Shown piece after piece: positions 2,654 to 13,852 of a DNA stretch of 64,000 nucleotides. A model generated the notes under the pieces. That model had not been told where the DNA came from, did not search any database, and saw only the letters and a program-made list of their open reading frames with translations. The number at the start of each line of letters is the position of its first letter. Positions within the stretch are counted from its first letter, which is position 1. This stretch comes from Longimicrobiales bacterium (GTDB taxonomy: Bacteria > Gemmatimonadota > Gemmatimonadetes > Longimicrobiales > Gaopeijiaceae), in the NCBI GenBank assembly GCA_965248195.1, contig CBDFIQ010000002.1:896001-960000 (forward strand). Reading direction: 5' to 3'. The position numbers and the translations under genes were made by a program.

Positions 2654-3985
2654 ATGCCCAAAACTCCCCTGGACTACTTCCGCTCGGGCGACCTCACCGT
2701 GGGTGTAGTCGGTCTCGGTTACGTAGGATTGCCGTTGTCGGTGGAGATCGCCCGAGCGGGCCTGCGTGCCGTGGGTTTCGACGTCGATCCGGAGGTCGTG
2801 GATGGCATCAACCAGGGAGCCAGCCACATCGAGGACGTCACGGGGGAAGAGTTGGCGGAGGTTCTGGCCACCGGACGGCTGGAGGCCACCACCGATATGG
2901 CCCGGCTCGCCGAGTGCGACGCCATCTCGATTTCGGTGCCGACTCCGCTATCGAAAACGCAGGATCCGGACGTCTCCTTTGTGATCGCCGCGTCGGAAGC
3001 GGTGGCAGCGGCGTTGCGCCCTGGGCAGCTCGTGGTTCTGGAGTCGACCACGTATCCGGGGACGACCCGGGAGGTGCTTCTTCCCGCGCTGGAGGGCACC
3101 GGGCTGAAGGTGGGCAAGGACTTCTTCCTCTGCTTCTCTCCCGAGCGTGTGGATCCCGGAAACGACGTCTGGAAAACGAAGAATACCCCGAAGGTCATCG
3201 GAGGGATGACGCCGGGCTGTATTGACGCCGGGTTGGCGGTCTACGAACGCTTCATCGACACCATGGTGCCTGTCTCGTCCACCGAGGCGGCGGAGATGGT
3301 CAAGATCCTGGAAAACACCTTCCGGGCCGTGAATATCGCTCTGGTGAACGAGGTTGCGCTCATCGCCGACCGGCTCGACGTGAACGTGTGGGAGGTCATC
3401 GAGGCGGCGGCCACGAAGCCGTTCGGCTTCATGAAGTTCACACCCGGCCCGGGACTCGGAGGGCACTGCATCCCGGTCGATCCACACTATCTGGCGTGGA
3501 AGATGCGTACGCTCGACTATCGGACCCGCTTCATCGAGCTGGCCTCGGAGATCAACGCCGAGATGCCCGAGTTCGTGGTGGGGAAGGTCCGGGCCGCCCT
3601 GAACGCTGGTAAGAAGGCCGTGAACGGGGCACGCATCCTGGTGCTCGGCGTGGCCTACAAGCGTGACGTCGACGATGTCAGGGAATCGCCGGCCCTGGAT
3701 ATCATCGGGCTTCTTGCCGCCGATGGTGCGGACGTGGCGTACCACGACCCCTTCGTGCCCGATTTGACTGAGGAGGGTACCGCTCTATCTTCGGTGCCCC
3801 TGGTGGATCAAGCCCTCACCGAGGCCGACGTGGTGGTGATCGTGACGGACCACACGGACGTTGACTACGCGCGGGTTCTCGAACGGGCGGCCGTGGTTGT
3901 GGACGCCCGGCACGTCACGGCGGCTCTCCTGGAGGGGAGCTCCTCGGGGGCGAGTGCGTGGATCGTTAAGGGTGGGCCGGAGTGA
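2654..3985 (+). CDS. UDP-N-acetylhexosamine 6-dehydrogenase (WbpA/WecC family)
   Basis: GLGYVGLP, ESTTYPGTT, FSPERVDPGN, GPGLGGHCIPVDP, DVRESPA motifs. Confidence 0.92.
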   Translation: MPKTPLDYFRSGDLTVGVVGLGYVGLPLSVEIARAGLRAVGFDVDPEVVDGINQGASHIEDVTGEELAEVLATGRLEATTDMARLAECDAISISVPTPLSKTQDPDVSFVIAASEAVAAALRPGQLVVLESTTYPGTTREVLLPALEGTGLKVGKDFFLCFSPERVDPGNDVWKTKNTPKVIGGMTPGCIDAGLAVYERFIDTMVPVSSTEAAEMVKILENTFRAVNIALVNEVALIADRLDVNVWEVIEAAATKPFGFMKFTPGPGLGGHCIPVDPHYLAWKMRTLDYRTRFIELASEINAEMPEFVVGKVRAALNAGKKAVNGARILVLGVAYKRDVDDVRESPALDIIGLLAADGADVAYHDPFVPDLTEEGTALSSVPLVDQALTEADVVVIVTDHTDVDYARVLERAAVVVDARHVTAALLEGSSSGASAWIVKGGPE

Positions 3986-3986
3986 G

Positions 3987-5177
3987 GTGAGCGACCCTCC
4001 GGTACTCGTTCACCGTCTCATCGCACGCCTCAACACGGGTGGACCGGCCAGGCATGTGGTGCACCTGGCCGAAGCCCTCGATCCCGCTCGCTTTCGCACG
4101 CGCCTGATCGCCGGGCGCATCACCGAGGACGAGGGAGACATGACCTACTACGCCCGGGAACGCGGCGTGGAGGTCACCGAGATCGCGGGTATGTCGCGGT
4201 TGCTCTCGCCGTTGCGGGACCTGCGGTCGTTTCTGACGCTCCTCCGGATCTTTCGTCGCGAGCGGCCCGCGATCGTACACACGCACACCGCCAAGGCGGG
4301 GACGGTGGCACGGTTGGCCGCGATGGCCGCCGGCGTGCCCGTGATCATCCACACGTTCCACGGGCACGTTCTCGGGGGTCTCTACTTCTCCCGGCTCAAG
4401 ACGCGGTTCTTCCTGGCGATCGAGCGGCGACTGGCGAAGGCCACCGACCGGCTCGTCGTCCTCACGCACGCCCAGGCCCGTGAGATGGCCGAGGGCCTGC
4501 GCGTTGCGCCCATGGACCGGTTCGCCGTGATTCCGCTGGGGCTCGACCTCCAGCCGTTCGCGGACGTGGATCAAGGCGCGGCCCGTTCTCGGCTTCGGGC
4601 GGAGCTGGGGATCGGTGAGGACAGTCCTGTGGTCGGCATCGTTGGGCGCATGGTGCCCGTGAAGAATCATCCACTTCTGTTCGATGCGATGGCGCAGCTC
4701 AAGGGCCGCATGGATCCGGCGCCCCATCTGATCGTAGTGGGGTCGGGCGAACAGGAGCGCGCCCTGCGGGCCTATGTGAGCGACAAGGGCCTGGACAGCG
4801 TCGTGCATTGGCTCGGCTGGAGGAAGGATCTCCCGCAAATATTTCCTGCCTTCGACGTGACGGCGCTCACCTCATTCGACGAGGGTACGCCGGTCTCGTT
4901 GATCGAGTCCTTGGCGAGTGGCACACCGGTGGTTTCGCTCGCGGTCGGGGGTGTCCCGGAGATCCTCGAGGGGGGCGAGCTTGGGCGCCTTGTGGAATCT
5001 GCTTCGGACAATGAGGTTGCCGACGCGCTGGAGAGCGTTTTGCTGTCTCCGCCATCTGCCGAGGATACGGAACGGGCGCGGAGGCTGGTTCTGGAACGTT
5101 TTTCGATCCGACGGCTGGCCCAAGATATCGAGCGCTTGTACGCGGATGCGCTCAAGCGGGCCGGCGCGGGAAATTGA
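3987..5177 (+). CDS. Glycosyltransferase family 4
   Basis: ARLNTGGPA, HTHTAKAG, HTFHGH, EGTPVSLIE motifs; GTG start just after the dehydrogenase stop. Confidence 0.9.
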   Translation: MSDPPVLVHRLIARLNTGGPARHVVHLAEALDPARFRTRLIAGRITEDEGDMTYYARERGVEVTEIAGMSRLLSPLRDLRSFLTLLRIFRRERPAIVHTHTAKAGTVARLAAMAAGVPVIIHTFHGHVLGGLYFSRLKTRFFLAIERRLAKATDRLVVLTHAQAREMAEGLRVAPMDRFAVIPLGLDLQPFADVDQGAARSRLRAELGIGEDSPVVGIVGRMVPVKNHPLLFDAMAQLKGRMDPAPHLIVVGSGEQERALRAYVSDKGLDSVVHWLGWRKDLPQIFPAFDVTALTSFDEGTPVSLIESLASGTPVVSLAVGGVPEILEGGELGRLVESASDNEVADALESVLLSPPSAEDTERARRLVLERFSIRRLAQDIERLYADALKRAGAGN

Positions 5178-5253: not shown

Positions 5254-6039
5254 ATGACCAGGTTTGATGATCTAGCCCGGATACACGATGCGATCCTCGC
5301 AGCCGCGGACGCGATCCTGCCGTTCACGCCGGGCGACGTCGAGTTCGAGATCAAGAGTGAACGGGGCGATCCATTGACGGCGGCCGATAAAGCCGCCGAT
5401 CGTGTACTCCGGGAGCTGCTCCCCGCCCATGGAGAGGGCTGGCTCTCGGAGGAGTCGATCGACGACCCCGTCCGTCTGGGGTGTCGGCGGGTCTGGGTGG
5501 TGGACCCGATAGACGGGACCCGGGAATTCATCGATGGGATCCCCGAGTGGTGTATTTCGGTGGGCCTGGTCGAGGACGGTCTCCCCGTTGCGGGGGGCAT
5601 CTACAATCCGGGCACCGACGAGTTGGTGATCGGCTCGCTGGAGACCGGCGTGAAGTACCAGGGGCGCTCCTCGGCCGTCAGCGGCCTTCCCGATCTCGAC
5701 GGCGCCGTGATCCTGGCCAGCCGGAGCGAGATCGCAAGGGGTGAATGGGACGGGCTCGACGAGGCGCCGTGTGAGGTACGGCCGTGCGGATCCGTCGCCT
5801 TCAAGATGGCGCTCGTAGCGGCGGGACAGGCGGATGGCACCTGGACACTCGTCCCGAAGAGTGAGTGGGACGTCGCAGCCGGCACCGCGCTCGTACGGGC
5901 CGCGGGCGGGTGCGTGATCCACGCCGACGGGACGGAGCCCGCCTTCAATCAGCCGGTACCGCGGCATCCGAATCTGTTGGCAGCGGGGATGGGGATCCTC
6001 AGCGATTTTCGAGGGAATTGGATGAAGGTGGACTCTTGA
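5254..6039 (+). CDS. cysQ: 3'(2'),5'-bisphosphate nucleotidase / inositol monophosphatase family
   Basis: LSEE, WVVDPIDGTREF, ASRS, EWDVAAG motifs; sat-cysC nearby. Confidence 0.8.
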   Translation: MTRFDDLARIHDAILAAADAILPFTPGDVEFEIKSERGDPLTAADKAADRVLRELLPAHGEGWLSEESIDDPVRLGCRRVWVVDPIDGTREFIDGIPEWCISVGLVEDGLPVAGGIYNPGTDELVIGSLETGVKYQGRSSAVSGLPDLDGAVILASRSEIARGEWDGLDEAPCEVRPCGSVAFKMALVAAGQADGTWTLVPKSEWDVAAGTALVRAAGGCVIHADGTEPAFNQPVPRHPNLLAAGMGILSDFRGNWMKVDS

Positions 6040-6063: not shown

Positions 6064-6906
6064 GTGAGGATCCTGGTCACGGGTGCGGCCGGCCTGTTGG
6101 GTAACGCCGTCGTGCGTACAGTCGGGGAAAGAGGCCACGATGTCCGTGCGTTTGCCCGATGCGCCCTCGACGTTACGGACCCTGGGGAGGTGGAGCGGTG
6201 CTTGGGGGCCGAAAAGCCGGAGGTCGTCGTCCACTGCGCCGCATACACAGCCGTAGACCGAGCCGAGGAAGAGTTGGATCAAGCCATGATCGTCACCCGT
6301 GACGGCACACGGAACGTGGCGATGGCCGCGGCCCAGATCGGCGCAACGGTAGTATATCCCAGCACCGACTATGTCTTCGACGGCCGAGCGGACACTCCGT
6401 ACGGGCCCGACGACGAAACGAGTCCCCTGAGCGCTTATGGCGTGAGTAAGTTGGCCGGCGAGCAGGTGCTCGCGGTGTCGGGGTGCAGCTGGATGGTGGT
6501 CCGGACGAGTTGGCTGTACGGGTCCGGCGGCCGGGACTTCGTGGACGTCGTCCTGGAACAGGCGGAGCGTCGCGTCGGGATGAGGGTGGTGGACGATCAG
6601 GTGGGTTGTCCGACGTGGACGGGCAGCCTGGCTCCCGGAATCGTCGAGTTGGCCGAAGAGGGTGCGACAGGAACGTACCACCTCTGCGACGCAGGCCAGG
6701 CCTCGTGGCTCGAATTGGCACAAACGGTGGTGGGCGAGGCCGGACTCGACCTGGAGCTCACGGCTACGAGCACGCTCGCCTGGGGTGCGCCCGCGCTGCG
6801 TCCACCGTATTCCGTACTCGACTGCGCAAAGGCCGAGCGTATACTAGGCCGTGAGATGTCCCCTTGGCGTGAGTCCCTGCACACCTACCTGTCGGAGACG
6901 CTATGA
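6064..6906 (+). CDS. rmlD: dTDP-4-dehydrorhamnose reductase
   Basis: AAYTAVDRAE, STDYVFDG, YGVSKLAGE, VVDDQVGCPT, RPPYSVLD. Confidence 0.93.
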   Translation: MRILVTGAAGLLGNAVVRTVGERGHDVRAFARCALDVTDPGEVERCLGAEKPEVVVHCAAYTAVDRAEEELDQAMIVTRDGTRNVAMAAAQIGATVVYPSTDYVFDGRADTPYGPDDETSPLSAYGVSKLAGEQVLAVSGCSWMVVRTSWLYGSGGRDFVDVVLEQAERRVGMRVVDDQVGCPTWTGSLAPGIVELAEEGATGTYHLCDAGQASWLELAQTVVGEAGLDLELTATSTLAWGAPALRPPYSVLDCAKAERILGREMSPWRESLHTYLSETL

Positions 6907-7026
6907 GGTCGGAGACGCTATGAGGTCGAAGACTCTTTGATGTCGGAGACGTTATGAAGTCGGAGACGTAATGAAGTCGGAGACTCTTTGATGTCGGAGA
7001 CGCCATGAACCCGGAAATGCCATGAA
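6891..7026 (+). repeat. Eight degenerate 17-bp tandem units (consensus GTCGGAGACGCTATGAR) spanning the rmlD-rmlA junction
   Basis: Units start at 6891, 6908, 6925, 6942, 6959, 6976, 6993 and 7010. Confidence 0.95.
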
Positions 7027-7798
7027 GGGCGTCGTACTCGCCGGAGGGTTAGGTACCCGCCTCTTGCCCATGACCCGCGTCACCAACAAGCACCTTTTGC
7101 CGGTATTCGATCGGCCCATGATCTACTTCCCCATTCAGCAGCTCGTTCATGTGGGGATCGACGACATCCTCATCGTAACAGGTGGAAATCAGGCGGGGGA
7201 CTTTCTCCGGTTGTTGGGCAACGGGAAGGAATTCGGCTTGCGACGGCTGAACTACGCCTACCAGGAGGGGGAGGGGGGGATCGCCGAGGCCCTCGGTCTG
7301 GCGGAGGACTTCGCGGAGGACAGTCCCATCTGTGTGATTCTGGGTGACAACATCTTCGAAACTCCCATTCGCGAGGCCGTGGACGCTTTTCGGGCCGACC
7401 CCGAGGGTGCCATGGTCTTGCTCAAGGAGGTCGACCACCCGGAGCGCTTCGGCGTGGCCGAGCTGCACGAAGGCCGCGTCGTGAGCATCGTGGAGAAGCC
7501 GTCCGAGCCCGAGAGCAACCTGGCGGTGACCGGATGCTACATCTACGACGGTCGTGTGTTCGAGATCGTGCGGGGTCTCTCGCCCTCCGAGCGAGGCGAG
7601 CTCGAGATCACCGACGTCAACAACCGCTATCTCGAGTGGGGTACCCTTCGCCATCACGTCGTCAGCGGTTGGTGGACCGATGCGGGAACCATTCCGTCGC
7701 TGCATCACGCGACGAAGTTGGTCGCGGCCTCCCTGGATGAGCCCGTGCTCCGGATGCCCGAGATTGCCACCGGCCCGAGGAGGCGTGCAGGGGACTAA
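7022..7798 (+). CDS. rmlA: Glucose-1-phosphate thymidylyltransferase (short SpsI-like form)
   Basis: LAGGLGTRLLP, NKHLLPV, LGDNIF, VEKP, SERGELEITD, WTDAGT. Confidence 0.9.
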   Translation: MKGVVLAGGLGTRLLPMTRVTNKHLLPVFDRPMIYFPIQQLVHVGIDDILIVTGGNQAGDFLRLLGNGKEFGLRRLNYAYQEGEGGIAEALGLAEDFAEDSPICVILGDNIFETPIREAVDAFRADPEGAMVLLKEVDHPERFGVAELHEGRVVSIVEKPSEPESNLAVTGCYIYDGRVFEIVRGLSPSERGELEITDVNNRYLEWGTLRHHVVSGWWTDAGTIPSLHHATKLVAASLDEPVLRMPEIATGPRRRAGD

Positions 7799-7839: not shown

Positions 7840-8922
7840 GTGAGACTGCTCGTGACAGGTGGCGCCGGATTCATCGGGTCCAACTTGGTTCGGTACTTCC
7901 TCGACGATTACCAAGACGTCGAGGTGATCAACCTGGACCTCCTCACCTACGCTGGGAACCTGGACAACCTCGCCGGCCTCGAAGCGGATCCACGTTACCG
8001 CTTCGTGCACGGCGATATTTGCGACGCCGCCTTGGTGGGCGAGCTGGTGGGGGGGGTGGACGCCGTCCTCAACCTTGCGGCCGAATCCCATGTGGATCGC
8101 TCGATCGCGCACGACACACCCTTCGTCCTTACGAACGTCAACGGAACCCATACGCTCTTGAGCGCGGCGCTGGCCGCCCCGAACCCACCGCGCTTCGTCC
8201 ACGTCTCGACCGACGAGGTGTACGGGGAGTTGCCGTGGAGGGACCCGGAGGCTCGCGATCCCGCCCGTCGGGACGCGGCCGGGCGGGACGCGGCCGGTGG
8301 GGACACGGCCGGGCGGGACGCGGCTCCCATGGCCCCGGAGGATGATCGCTTCACCGAGTCGACCCCTCTGGCTCCACGGTCTCCCTATTCGGCCACCAAG
8401 GCCTCGGCCGACATGCTCGTGCTGGCCTACCACCGGACGCACGGGCTGGATGCGGTCGTCACGCGCTGCTCCAACAACTATGGGCCGTACCAGTTTCCGG
8501 AGAAGCTGATCCCGCTGATGGTATCCAACGCGATGAAGGGCGAGCCGCTGCCGGTCTATGGCGACGGCCTCAACGTGCGGGACTGGATCCACGTGCGAGA
8601 TCATTGCTGCGGCTTGGACGCCGCGCTGCGGAAGGGTCGATCCGGGGAGGCCTACAATTTCGGGGGTGATGCAGAGCGCACCAACCTTCAGATCGTGAAC
8701 GCGATCCTCGAGCAGACTGGGGCCGACCCGGGGTTGATCACCTTCGTTGAGGATCGCCTGGGTCACGACCGGCGTTACGCGGTCGATGCCACCAAGGCGA
8801 AGCAGGAGCTGTCCTGGGCGCCGCTAGTGGAGTTTGGGGAAGGACTCACCGAGACGATCGCATGGTACGGGGAGAACGGGGCGTGGCTGGAGCGGATCGC
8901 GAGCGGGGAGTATCGGGGTTGA
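7840..8922 (+). CDS. rmlB: dTDP-glucose 4,6-dehydratase with a repeat-derived loop insertion
   Basis: GGAGFIG, AAESHVDRSI, STDEVYG, PYSATKA, CSNNYGPYQFPEKLIP, DRLGHDRRY. Confidence 0.95.
   Translation: MRLLVTGGAGFIGSNLVRYFLDDYQDVEVINLDLLTYAGNLDNLAGLEADPRYRFVHGDICDAALVGELVGGVDAVLNLAAESHVDRSIAHDTPFVLTNVNGTHTLLSAALAAPNPPRFVHVSTDEVYGELPWRDPEARDPARRDAAGRDAAGGDTAGRDAAPMAPEDDRFTESTPLAPRSPYSATKASADMLVLAYHRTHGLDAVVTRCSNNYGPYQFPEKLIPLMVSNAMKGEPLPVYGDGLNVRDWIHVRDHCCGLDAALRKGRSGEAYNFGGDAERTNLQIVNAILEQTGADPGLITFVEDRLGHDRRYAVDATKAKQELSWAPLVEFGEGLTETIAWYGENGAWLERIASGEYRG
8239..8328 (+). repeat. Six in-frame 15-bp degenerate tandem repeats (RDxxx pentapeptides) in rmlB
   Basis: RDPEA RDPAR RDAAG RDAAG GDTAG RDAAP; core CGGGACGCGGCCGGG. 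Confidence 0.85.
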
Positions 8923-10109: not shown

Positions 10110-11837
10110 ATGACCGAGCATCTGATTGCCCCTCACGGTGGTGAGCTCACACAACTGATCGTACCACCGGAGCGCGCCTCCGAGCTGCAGGAGGCCTCAC
10201 GGGATTGGCCCTCCTGGGACCTTACGGCCCGCCAAGTGTGCGACCTCGAGTTGCTCATGAACGGTGGATTCTCACCTCTCACGGGATTCATGATGTCGGC
10301 CGAATACGGGAGCGTGTGCGAGAGCATGCGGTTGGCGGACAGCACGCTCTGGCCGATTCCCATCACCCTCGATGTCGACGAAGCCTGTGCGGAAGAACTC
10401 GAGTCCGGCTCTCCCGTGGCTCTGCGTGACCCCGAAGGCGTCATGCTTGCGGTGCTCCACGTCGAAGAGATCTGGCGTGCCGACCGGGTGCAGGAGGCCG
10501 AACAGGTGTTCGGTACGGCCAACCCGGAGCATCCCGGCGCCGCATCCCTGTTGGAGGGGTCGAACCCCGTGTACGTGGGGGGCCGCGTCGAGGGTGTGCA
10601 ACGCCCCAGCCACTACGACTTCCGCGAGCTTCGCAGCACTCCTCTGGAGCTCCGTCACGACTTTGCCCGGTTGGGATGGCGGAAGATCGTCGCGTTCCAG
10701 ACCCGAAACCCCATGCACCGTGCCCATCAGGAGTTGACGCTCCGGGCCGCGAAGCAGGTCGGCGCGAATCTCCTGATCCATCCCGTCGTAGGCATGACCA
10801 AACCCGGCGACGTAGACCACTTCACACGGGTTCGGTGCTATGAGGCGCTTTTGGGCACCTACCCTCAATTCACGGCCAAGCTTGCGCTGCTCAATCTGGC
10901 GATGCGGATGGCGGGACCGAGGGAGGCGCTCTGGCACGCCATCATCCGGAAGAACCACGGTTGCACCCACCTGATTGTGGGGAGGGATCATGCCGGCCCG
11001 GGGAGCGACTCGTCCGGGACGCCGTTTTACGGGCCGTACGACGCGCAGGAGTTGATGAGCGAGCACGAGCGTGAGCTGGGGGTCCAGATGGTCCCGTTCA
11101 GACTCATGGTGTACGTCCAGGACCGGGCCGAGTACATGCCGGTGAACGAGGTCCCGGAGGGCGTCGAGCCGAAGTCTATTTCGGGCACTGAGCTTCGTGA
11201 CCGCCTGGCGGACGGTCGGGACATTCCGGACTGGTTCACCTTTCCGGACGTGGAGCGGGAGTTGCGTAAGAGCCATCCACCCCGGCACCGGCAGGGATTC
11301 ACGGTCTTCTTCACCGGGCTTTCGGGGTCGGGAAAGTCGACGGTCGCCAACGTGCTCCGCGTCAAGCTGCTGGAGATGGGCGGCCGGCCCATCACGCTTC
11401 TGGATGGCGACGTCGTACGCCAGAACCTCTCTTCGGAGCTCGGCTTCAGCAAAGAGCACCGCGATCTGAACATCCGGCGCATCGGGTACGTGGCCTCGGA
11501 AATCACGAAGGCGGGCGGGATCGCGATCTGTGCCCCGATCGCGCCGTATGCCGCGATCAGAAAAGCGAACCGTAAGATGATTTCCGCCCTGGGTGGATAC
11601 ATTCTCGTCCACCTCGCCACTCCCCTCGAAGTCTGTGAGCAGCGGGACCGCAAAGGACTCTACGCCAAGGCACGCGCCGGCATCATCAAGGAGTTCACCG
11701 GGATCTCGGATCCATACGAGGCGCCCCAGCATCCCGCCGTACGCATCGATACGACCGACATCTCGCCCGAGGAAGCGGCTCAGCAGATCTTTCTGCATCT
11801 GGAGAAAGAAGGGTACATTGGGGCGGGGGCGCCGTGA
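10110..11837 (+). CDS. sat-cysC: Bifunctional sulfate adenylyltransferase / adenylylsulfate kinase
   Basis: AFQTRNPMHRAH and IVGRDHAG (Sat); FTGLSGSGKST, LLDGD, RDRKGLY, FTGISDPYE (CysC). Confidence 0.95.
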   Translation: MTEHLIAPHGGELTQLIVPPERASELQEASRDWPSWDLTARQVCDLELLMNGGFSPLTGFMMSAEYGSVCESMRLADSTLWPIPITLDVDEACAEELESGSPVALRDPEGVMLAVLHVEEIWRADRVQEAEQVFGTANPEHPGAASLLEGSNPVYVGGRVEGVQRPSHYDFRELRSTPLELRHDFARLGWRKIVAFQTRNPMHRAHQELTLRAAKQVGANLLIHPVVGMTKPGDVDHFTRVRCYEALLGTYPQFTAKLALLNLAMRMAGPREALWHAIIRKNHGCTHLIVGRDHAGPGSDSSGTPFYGPYDAQELMSEHERELGVQMVPFRLMVYVQDRAEYMPVNEVPEGVEPKSISGTELRDRLADGRDIPDWFTFPDVERELRKSHPPRHRQGFTVFFTGLSGSGKSTVANVLRVKLLEMGGRPITLLDGDVVRQNLSSELGFSKEHRDLNIRRIGYVASEITKAGGIAICAPIAPYAAIRKANRKMISALGGYILVHLATPLEVCEQRDRKGLYAKARAGIIKEFTGISDPYEAPQHPAVRIDTTDISPEEAAQQIFLHLEKEGYIGAGAP

Positions 11838-11927: not shown

Positions 11928-12074
11928 AATGAGGCGCACGCGGTCGCGAAGATTGTGGGAATCAAGATGTGCGAGGCGTACCGCCGGCAGCACGCGCGTA
12001 ACTTCATCAGTGCCATGCCCACCAACCTGTACCGTCCGGAGGACAACTTCGATCTCGAAACATCCTATGTGCTG
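11928..12074 (+). pseudogene. fcl: Internal fragment of GDP-L-fucose synthase
   Basis: [49 protein letters not shown] matches the Fcl core; the catalytic YxxxK Tyr reads His. Confidence 0.85.
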
Positions 12075-12148
12075 CATGGCCCTCAGTTGTGCTGCATGGC
12101 CCTCAGTCGTGCTTCATGGCCCTCAGTTGTGCTTCATGGCCCTCAGTC
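12069..12148 (+). repeat. Four 20-bp tandem repeats GTGCTKCATGGCCCTCAGTY
   Basis: Units at 12069, 12089, 12109 and 12129; no spacers. Confidence 0.95.
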
Positions 12149-12337
12149 ACTGGAAAACGTCTGGCGCCGCAGCGGGAGGCCACGTTACGTTATCCGGGTC
12201 GGTGATCCGGATAACGGCAATATGCTTCCGGGTCACGCCTTCCCAGGTCCAAGATGCGGGGAGCTTCTTGGCATGGAGAGGCTGGCTCACGTTTCTGGAT
12301 TGCAAGAGACCCCAATGAGATTATACCGTACCTCGTG

Positions 12338-13852
12338 ATGAGGGCTGAGTTGCAGGATCCCCCCGGGCAGGCTCCATCCTCGGTCGCGGAAACACCTGAT
12401 CTCTGGGCGGATGCTCCGGACGGGCTTCGACGGGCTGTACAGAATCAGGCCCCGGGCCGACTCAAGCGGCACGGTGTACGTGATGCACTTCGATTCGCTG
12501 CTTTGCTCTCTGTTGATGGCCTGGCGTTTCTGATTACCCGCACAGTTCTTCACTTTCTGCGCGTCGAGGGTCCGTTGACCGCGGTAAGGGACATCTTTCC
12601 GAGATCATACCTTGGCGGTCTTCAGTTTGCCGTCGCCCTCTTCGTATCTTTGCTGGTAGTGGGGGCATACCGGCGCGGGGGTGGGTGGCGGTCCCCCTGG
12701 CGCTGGCTGATGGCCGTGACACTCGCTACGGCTCTTGCTCTTTGGCAGCCGCTATGGACCGAGGACCTCTTGCTGGTTTCCGTTCAGTTCGTCGCCACGG
12801 TCGTGTCGGTCACCCTCGCCCTGGCGGTCCTACGGGGGGCGTTAGCCGTGATGGTTGGCCTTGCTCGGGAGCGGTTCAGCGTTGTGCCCAAAGCGGTGCT
12901 TTTCGGTGACCGTTCGGCGATCGCTCAAGCAACGCGGAGTCCGGTGTTCACTCAGTCTTCGGGCTATCGCGTGGCCCATGAGCTCACGATCGACGGGCCG
13001 GACATAGACAGGGATGCGATCGGCCTTGAGCTCGCGAGCGTGATTCTGGCCACGAAGGCTGATGCAGTATTCCTTCCTGGGACCCTGGATAAGGGGCTGT
13101 TTCAGCAAGTTATCGAAGTCGCACATAGCACGGGTTGTGAACTGATCAGCCTATCGATGGCCTGGAATCTCGGTGGTGTCTACCCTTCGCTCCGAATCTG
13201 TTGTGGTGTGCCCGTGACCTCGCTGACACAGCCTGGTCTCAAGGCACATCAGCTCGTGGTCAAGCGCTTGATGGATATCGTGTGCTCCGGCGTTGGCCTG
13301 ATCCTTATTTCGCCTCTCCTCGTGCTTCTAGCGATCGCCATCAAGGTAACGTCGAAAGGTCCTGTTTTTTTCCGACAGGAGCGAGTCGGTCGCGGAGGAA
13401 AATCGTTCATGATCCTGAAGTTTAGGAGCATGACTCGCGATGCCGAATCGGAGCGAGCGAGTGTTTCGGAGGAGAGCATCTATTCGGATCCGCGGTTATT
13501 CAAGATTCCTGACGATCCACGTATCACGCGCTTTGGGCGATGGCTCAGGCGGACGAGTCTGGATGAACTTCCCCAACTCCTCAATGTGTTGAAGGGGGAT
13601 ATGTCCCTGGTCGGGCCACGACCGCCGATTCCCGAAGAAGTGGACCTGTACGAGAGCCGTCACATGTGCCGTGTGGATGTTCGCCCTGGCATTACCGGGC
13701 CATGGCAGACCGCAGGCCGAAACTCGATACGAGACTTCGAGCGGGTCGTGTTGTTGGAAAAGGCGTATCTCCACAACTGGAGCTTGGCGCTGGATCTGCA
13801 GATACTACTTAACACGGTGCCGGTCGTGCTGAGGCGCACGGGAGCGCACTGA
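12338..13852 (+). CDS. Polyprenyl-phosphate priming sugar transferase (WcaJ/WbaP family, long form)
   Basis: N-terminal TMs; KRLMDIV, FRQERVG, KFRSM, LDELPQLLNVLKGDMSLVGPRP. Confidence 0.92.
   Translation: MRAELQDPPGQAPSSVAETPDLWADAPDGLRRAVQNQAPGRLKRHGVRDALRFAALLSVDGLAFLITRTVLHFLRVEGPLTAVRDIFPRSYLGGLQFAVALFVSLLVVGAYRRGGGWRSPWRWLMAVTLATALALWQPLWTEDLLLVSVQFVATVVSVTLALAVLRGALAVMVGLARERFSVVPKAVLFGDRSAIAQATRSPVFTQSSGYRVAHELTIDGPDIDRDAIGLELASVILATKADAVFLPGTLDKGLFQQVIEVAHSTGCELISLSMAWNLGGVYPSLRICCGVPVTSLTQPGLKAHQLVVKRLMDIVCSGVGLILISPLLVLLAIAIKVTSKGPVFFRQERVGRGGKSFMILKFRSMTRDAESERASVSEESIYSDPRLFKIPDDPRITRFGRWLRRTSLDELPQLLNVLKGDMSLVGPRPPIPEEVDLYESRHMCRVDVRPGITGPWQTAGRNSIRDFERVVLLEKAYLHNWSLALDLQILLNTVPVVLRRTGAH

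Follow-up and report, generated by a model that had tools for sequence, protein, structure and literature searches.

The question raised by this locus is whether a short tandem repeat between two genes for a surface-glycan precursor serves as a path along which ribosomes travel from one gene to the next, or only resembles one on paper. In the window, by which we mean the whole 64,000-nucleotide stretch of Longimicrobiales DNA that was analysed, rmlD, encoding dTDP-4-dehydrorhamnose reductase (6064-6906, plus strand; TIGR01214 at 295 bits, above the cut-off of 224; PF04321), runs into an array in which a 17-bp stretch of the rmlD/rmlA junction (GGAG ... ATGA) stands eight times in tandem (6891-7026, plus strand). 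The array in turn runs into a gene for a short-form, rmlA-like glucose-1-phosphate thymidylyltransferase (7022-7798, plus strand; PF00483), which is named rmlA from its best match, TIGR01207 (239 bits, below the cut-off of 361), and from its position between rmlD and rmlB. The latter gene, encoding dTDP-glucose 4,6-dehydratase (7840-8922, plus strand; TIGR01181 at 441 bits, above the cut-off), has a very strong Shine-Dalgarno (SD) sequence of its own (-17.2 kcal/mol), and an rmlC-family gene lies outside the cluster, at G000:C2:1413866.

Several neighbouring features of the window deserve mention in their own right. At 3982-3989, the stop of a nucleotide-sugar dehydrogenase gene (GTGA) opens a two-codon ORF (VR), and the stop of that ORF in turn overlaps the start of the glycosyltransferase gene that follows; this amounts to a minimal bridge of one hop, within the cluster that also holds rmlD and rmlA. 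Within rmlB, an in-frame 15-bp repeat (8269-8324) encodes a D-A-A-G-R-like insert that varies among relatives by alignment length. At 11955-12338, a GDP-L-fucose synthase fragment with 40 residues matched to NF047922 continues into a four-copy, 20-bp tandem repeat (12068-12147) and looks like a gene remnant. Additionally, a CysQ/inositol-monophosphatase-like gene (5254-6039) and a bifunctional sulfate adenylyltransferase/APS kinase gene (10110-11837) lie inside the glycan cluster, which suggests that the cluster makes a sulfated surface glycan.

The array itself is regular: TRF reports period 17, 8.1 copies, 80% matches and no indels. The initial annotation had described a 17-bp repeat array carrying seven mini-ORFs up to the rmlA ATG at 7022, and translation gives an identical chain with all eight overlaps from rmlD to rmlA. 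The last codons of rmlD (S-E-T-L-stop) make up unit 1, and its stop (6904-6906) overlaps the ATG at 6903, so that mini-ORF 1 (MRSETL, 6903-6923) starts inside the rmlD stop (ATGA). There follow, all on the plus strand and each closed by a stop, MRSKTL (6920-6940), MSETL (6937-6957, from TTG 6937 at a -4 overlap or from ATG 6940 at a -1 overlap), MKSET (6954-6971, ending in the TAA of TAATG), MKSETL (6971-6991), MSETP (6988-7008, from TTG 6988 or ATG 6991) and MNPEMP (7005-7025), the last belonging to the oldest unit, in which GGAG has decayed to GGAA, and its stop overlapping the rmlA start. By sequence, each of the eight junctions shows a stop/start overlap of 4 or 1 nt, of the type ATGA, TGATG or TAATG. 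The TGA at unit columns 14-16 is invariant in 8/8 units and the ATG is retained in six; GGAG, said by the initial annotation to precede the next ATG in most units, is present in 6/8, units 3 and 8 being the exceptions. These two claims were borne out in full; a third, that start and stop bases had diverged without the loss of a link, stands in that no link is lost here, but the change from CTATGA to TTTGATG counts only once, because units 3 and 6 are one variant (one difference between the two) copied by a 51-bp higher-order duplication. In both of these units the in-frame TTG (6937 and 6988) persists at the original -4 overlap, and the TAATG unit retains its own TGA three bases downstream.

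An assembly artefact was ruled out, as the array region is covered by contigs from four public runs and homologous arrays were found in independent metagenome contigs. One contig of run X9, which aligns to 6937-7079, differs in one letter and lacks a single 17-base unit (unit 6, that of mini-ORF 6), and a second contig of the same run carries a separate 26-base duplication of the rmlD/rmlA junction, also of the form 3n+2 (read by eye). Three other candidate functions or origins were rejected or returned negative results. The folding of the array is unremarkable (z = -0.81), which argues against a function as RNA structure. A mobile insert is rejected on the grounds that the unit is not dispersed: outside the array, a genome-wide search gave no copies at 0-1 mismatches and three scattered, isolated matches at two mismatches. 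As for antisense coding, an 80-codon minus-strand ORF (6764-7006) was not selected by the coding model. The RNA runs identified share fewer than 10% of sequence words.

The origin of the array can be read from its relatives. The close clade comprises 20 loci; 11 of them come from metagenomes, one is a second copy within a genome, and 7 of the 11 other genomes of the genus hold this rmlA. Direct rmlD/rmlA overlaps are found in 15 of the 20 and arrays, of 2, 2, 6, 7 or 8 units, in the other five; judged from sequence, all 20 are coupled. The array unit equals the rmlD 3' end plus the overlap of the direct-overlap relatives, four array loci form a clade with 97/96 support and 17-29% differences at four-fold sites, and the tree pairs a 2-unit locus with the 7-unit one as sisters. 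Since the direct-overlap relatives show the ancestral state, these comparisons show, at the level of sequence, that the array arose by local tandem amplification of an ancestral ATGA overlap of rmlD and rmlA, as the initial annotation had supposed; the comparison of copy number across relatives and reads that it had proposed yields 1, 2, 6, 7 or 8 units, and one unit fewer in the run X9 contig. Slippage or unequal recombination would have duplicated 17 bases across the overlap, and the copies would later have expanded and contracted. In the wider family, the 61 junctions with rmlD upstream divide into 35 direct overlaps, 13 bridged by short ORFs and 13 without a traceable link, from which coupling of the two genes appears to be usual but not obligatory. 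In other genera, rmlD and rmlA are joined by short-ORF bridges of apparently independent origin (L048, L050 (genus g51), L014, L018, L081, L094 and L104); among such bridges two are exactly 17 bases long and a 24-codon one is conserved in two species.

Does the intact chain indicate selection? In an ATGA unit of length 3n+2, as 17 is, every ATG is in frame with the TGA of the next unit, so that by arithmetic the relay follows from the amplification, and the intactness of the chain is not more than chance given the repeat. Moreover, the array is self-repairing, in that on loss of a stop the frame continues to a stop four units later. The initial annotation had taken the conserved links as a hint of selection and had proposed to simulate random substitution: when substitutions are introduced in the number observed, coupling persists in 30-43% of eight-unit arrays (27-43% over long arrays; about 50% for four-unit arrays), and all seven hops survive in 1-8%. 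The intactness of this one array is therefore weak evidence of selection, and that part of the argument fell away. These results feed an opposing account, in which a repeat-prone genome, with 563 tandem arrays in 4.9 Mb, amplified the junction neutrally, while rmlA initiates alone. What tells against it is the comparative material, across relatives and at other junctions, by which the hint of selection was strengthened.

Among the five arrays of the close clade, the path to rmlA is open in every one. L036 has six diverged units and keeps all five hops, a result with a chance of 0.02 in simulation. In L041, two stops and two ATGs are lost, solely within a 23-codon ORF that bypasses these links and through which the genes are still coupled; the needed links are intact, among them the last two while middle ones have decayed, and the sole indel is a 6-base insertion. 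Link integrity among relatives, a comparison that the initial annotation had called for, is thus upheld for the path but not for the individual links, which are broken in L041, and the expectation that every link must be kept fails; by sequence comparison, single links are dispensable. In the motif columns, needed internal units show 2/31 differences (P=0.013; expected 4/17) and the three bypassed L041 units show 4/14 (Fisher 0.065 against needed units), P values that are optimistic because the related arrays share ancestry and are not independent. Despite a synonymous Leu position, none of the 5 arrays has lost the first ATG, which lies within the rmlD stop. Taken as sequence comparisons, these data favour purifying selection on the continuity of the path, and conservation confined to needed units is not what neutral amplification predicts.

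The SD of rmlA points the same way. Pairing energies computed with the 16S tail of this genome are -0.8 to -3.5 kcal/mol at the rmlA start in all five array loci (-3.5 here) and -6.6 to -10.4 kcal/mol in 14 of the 15 direct-overlap loci; the exception, L071, has a direct overlap, yet its rmlA is also without an SD. The loss of the SD in all five array loci counts against an rmlA that initiates alone. In coupled genes, an untranslated spacer of about 20 nt nearly abolishes coupling, according to the excerpted text of PMC10666635. Without translation of the mini-ORFs, the gap from the rmlD stop to rmlA would be 115 nt, which, by analogy with this distance dependence, would be fatal to coupling.

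The reading that we prefer, at a probability of roughly two in three, is that ribosomes traverse the mini-ORFs and supply rmlA, and that selection acts on the open path and not on the peptides, on single links or on a set number of units. Ribosomes leaving rmlD would be handed through the 5-6-codon ORFs to rmlA, the mini-peptides being throw-away products; rmlA, having lost its own SD in this lineage, probably depends on the ribosomes that arrive; and purifying selection would keep an unbroken translated path to its start, leaving the count of units and any single link free to drift. Ribosomes may additionally be loaded at the internal GGAG sites. Because re-initiation is disputed as the basis of coupling in E. 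coli (PMC7538156, as excerpted), the relay may operate through unfolding and new SD-led loading of ribosomes.

Carried further, that possibility becomes a separate explanation, in which initiation starts anew at internal GGAG-ATG sites and nothing but the final one or two mini-ORFs counts, these delivering ribosomes to the rmlA start or unfolding it. Such a loading ramp would accord with internal SDs of about -6.6 kcal/mol in 6/8 units against -3.5 at rmlA, with the intact last links and decayed middle of L041, with the dispute over re-initiation and with the short-ORF ribosome delivery described in PMC12548453. We nevertheless consider it distinctly improbable, as the path from rmlD is never broken, the first ATG is kept where a synonymous change was open to it, and the folding is not unusual.

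A dial-like role had been suggested for unit number, by which it would set RmlA output and the level of glycan and be selected as a contingency locus. Copy number does vary, from 1 to 8 between species and, between populations, by the unit absent from the run X9 contig; with this strain-level difference and 2-8 units among species, variation of the sort expected of a contingency locus is present, and the locus makes a surface-glycan precursor. In a toy model, hop number affects flux except where hand-over approaches 100%, and flux decays, saturates or gains with unit number according to the rates assumed; with SD-led loading at every unit it levels off after a few. The units are about 80% alike, unlike the perfect repeats of fast-switching loci, sister loci have 2 and 7 units, and the same layout recurs at unrelated junctions, so that such an adaptive dial appears quite unlikely. 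That the mini-peptides themselves act, as regulators or as stalling peptides, is scarcely credible: peptides related to M-K/R-S-E-T-L do recur in relatives, but their sequence is the re-read rmlD C-terminus, they vary freely between units and species and are fused into a 23-mer in L041, and unrelated junctions yield unrelated peptides.

Those unrelated junctions provide the wider test of neutrality. In this genome (own gene calls), further relay arrays join other genes, with 20 bp in five copies (G000 C1:1032775-1032873(-)), 29 bp in four (C2:26267-26391(-)), 29 bp in three (C1:1297555-1297641(+)) and 23 bp in five (C2:3061660-3061770(-)), together with a period-17 case (C2:1008129-1008199(+)) and several two-copy cases. 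The 23-bp array has units about 54% alike with all links kept, and an orthologue in G005. Gene ends of the form ATGA or GTGA that lie 0-150 bases from the next gene are bridged in 91/260 cases, and CTGA ends in 62/288 (P=0.0006). A control array of six 17-bp units (G000 C2:1651975-1652073(-)), in which the stop/start motif has decayed, precedes a gene that carries a strong SD outside the lattice. At G000 C2:1013111(+) and C1:162836(+), the duplicated junctions overlap by 8 bases and have periods of 31 and 13 (3n+1), the relay-keeping class for that overlap. Same-strand intergenic distances in this genome peak at 137 (56 cases) and 139 bases (18 cases), probably through a multi-copy element.

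Counting such arrays by period requires care. A first genome-wide count of duplicated junctions, with 19 at 3n+2 and 3 at 3n+1, was discarded, as its thresholds favoured periods 14, 17, 23 and 29 and the same skew appeared in a control class; a period-neutral detector gave 10:4 in this genome, which is not significant, with similar skews in control classes. In-phase codon bias also makes microhomology more frequent at 3n+2 lags (0.277 vs 0.257 per base), a slight bias that a neutral origin can draw on. Across 181 genomes of the family, a search for four RTGA at fixed periods returned 29, 18 and 20 arrays at periods 17, 20 and 23, and 6, 18 and 7 at periods 16, 19 and 22 (two period-17 arrays without a locus being left out of the comparisons that follow, and two period-16 matches that are 8-base repeats kept in the 3n+1 count). 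With period 19 as common as period 20 (18 each), these raw counts were rejected as stand-alone evidence of selection. Only the gene-joining subset, with a gene end and a gene start on the lattice, separates the classes: 17/65 arrays at 17/20/23 vs 1/31 at 16/19/22 (Fisher P=0.006), and in the sole 3n+1 case the path skips a unit and coupling is preserved. Where no gene is touched, the two classes have 18 and 16 arrays, and start-region arrays without a coupled upstream gene number 21 and 11, so that the neutral account finds arrays in both. With orthologues collapsed, there are 13:1 independent gene-joining events, for which P=0.0009 at even odds; under a codon-phase microhomology bias of about 1.8 to 1 towards 3n+2, P is about 0.02. 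Tandem start-region copies in L185, L196, L212, L219, L226 and L414 form stacks of upstream mini-ORFs in leaders.

A second junction, one of these gene-joining cases, in genus g6 and unrelated to rmlD/rmlA, was followed through orthologues read without motif selection (18/19 loci called, L372 left out). Nine loci are direct and nine have spacers of 34-70 bases, and all 18 are coupled, three of them despite indels; for each spacer locus the chance survival of a four-unit array is about 0.5, and six are close kin. Weighing the frame bias of gene-joining arrays and this junction with the motif columns and the lost SDs, we regard a purely neutral relay as unlikely. When GTDB was scanned for ATGA repeated five times at period 17, at least 120 loci were found, and among the matches listed 27/120, from several phyla, have ORFs of at least 100 codons ending and starting on the lattice, which, given a scan with no 3n+1 control and ORF length as the sole gene criterion in GC-rich DNA, is a sign of breadth only; 17-bp arrays flanked by long ORFs occur among the listed matches in named cultured species. 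As the same architecture, identified by sequence pattern, recurs at many unrelated junctions in the genome and family, it is not a rhamnose-specific device. None of the conclusions draws on the unpublished genomes G037 and G056.

Among known systems, the closest parallels are the MIRUs of mycobacteria (Supply et al. 1997, as summarised in PMC12548453, PMC5056196 and PMC4213456). MIRUs are intergenic direct tandem repeats with small ORFs and units of 40-100 bp (PMC5056196); a 2025 review describes a MIRU ORF coupled at -4 to the downstream gene (PMC12548453), and the senX3-regX3 units of 77 and 53 bp (PMC4213456) are both 3n+2, as is the period of 17 here. Like them, the rmlD/rmlA array is intergenic, direct, gene-oriented and variable in copy number, with a small ORF per unit of which the last is, on its sequence, coupled at -4 to the downstream gene. 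Unlike MIRUs, which those sources describe as one dispersed family of mobile inserts at about 41 loci, the array has a 17-bp unit that occurs at one locus and consists of the host junction's own sequence, and the other relay arrays of the family are each built from a different, unrelated unit. Its local origin makes homology to MIRU units very unlikely; by analogy, the array would work like a MIRU but is not one.

Two further comparisons are instructive. With gene pairs coupled by termination-reinitiation at ATGA/TGATG overlaps (excerpts of Huber et al., PMC6728339, and of PMC10666635), the array shares -4/-1 junctions, an SD upstream of the overlap and strong distance dependence, but the excerpts report tests of single gene pairs, whereas eight serial hand-overs through 5-6-codon ORFs are predicted here. 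In the ribosome-delivering short ORFs and bicistronic designs of PMC12548453 and the axe-txe minigene of PMC8708949, as excerpted, a short ORF likewise drives the next gene in cis in a frame- and distance-dependent manner, but each of these is a lone leader ORF, whereas the serial array here arose and varies through tandem duplication. We found no description in the open-access literature of locally amplified coupled junctions as a class outside mycobacteria.

The boldest generalisation would be that self-made relay minisatellites constitute a general, undescribed class of operon element, amplified in place and frame-filtered by selection, in which the downstream ribosome-binding site is given up, up to eight serial hand-overs are real and unit number is a heritable dial on an enzyme ratio, here RmlD to RmlA. 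We regard this full claim as doubtful; if it were true, the arrays would be natural rulers of per-hop re-initiation efficiency. Whether ribosomes re-initiate after termination is disputed (PMC6728339 and PMC10666635 vs PMC7538156, in the excerpts consulted), and in natural arrays with 1-8 serial overlaps before an SD-less gene, output as a function of hop number would measure the efficiency of hand-over, a test that arrays in named cultured species make feasible. The value of the locus lies in comparative evidence of reading-frame filtering and in a test of serial re-initiation, and rhamnose biology gains little. Finally, to judge from the frame bias of gene-joining arrays, minisatellites labelled "intergenic" in GC-rich bacteria may be translated and exposed to selection; the concept behind MIRUs would then reach past mycobacteria and need not be confined to repeats that are mobile.
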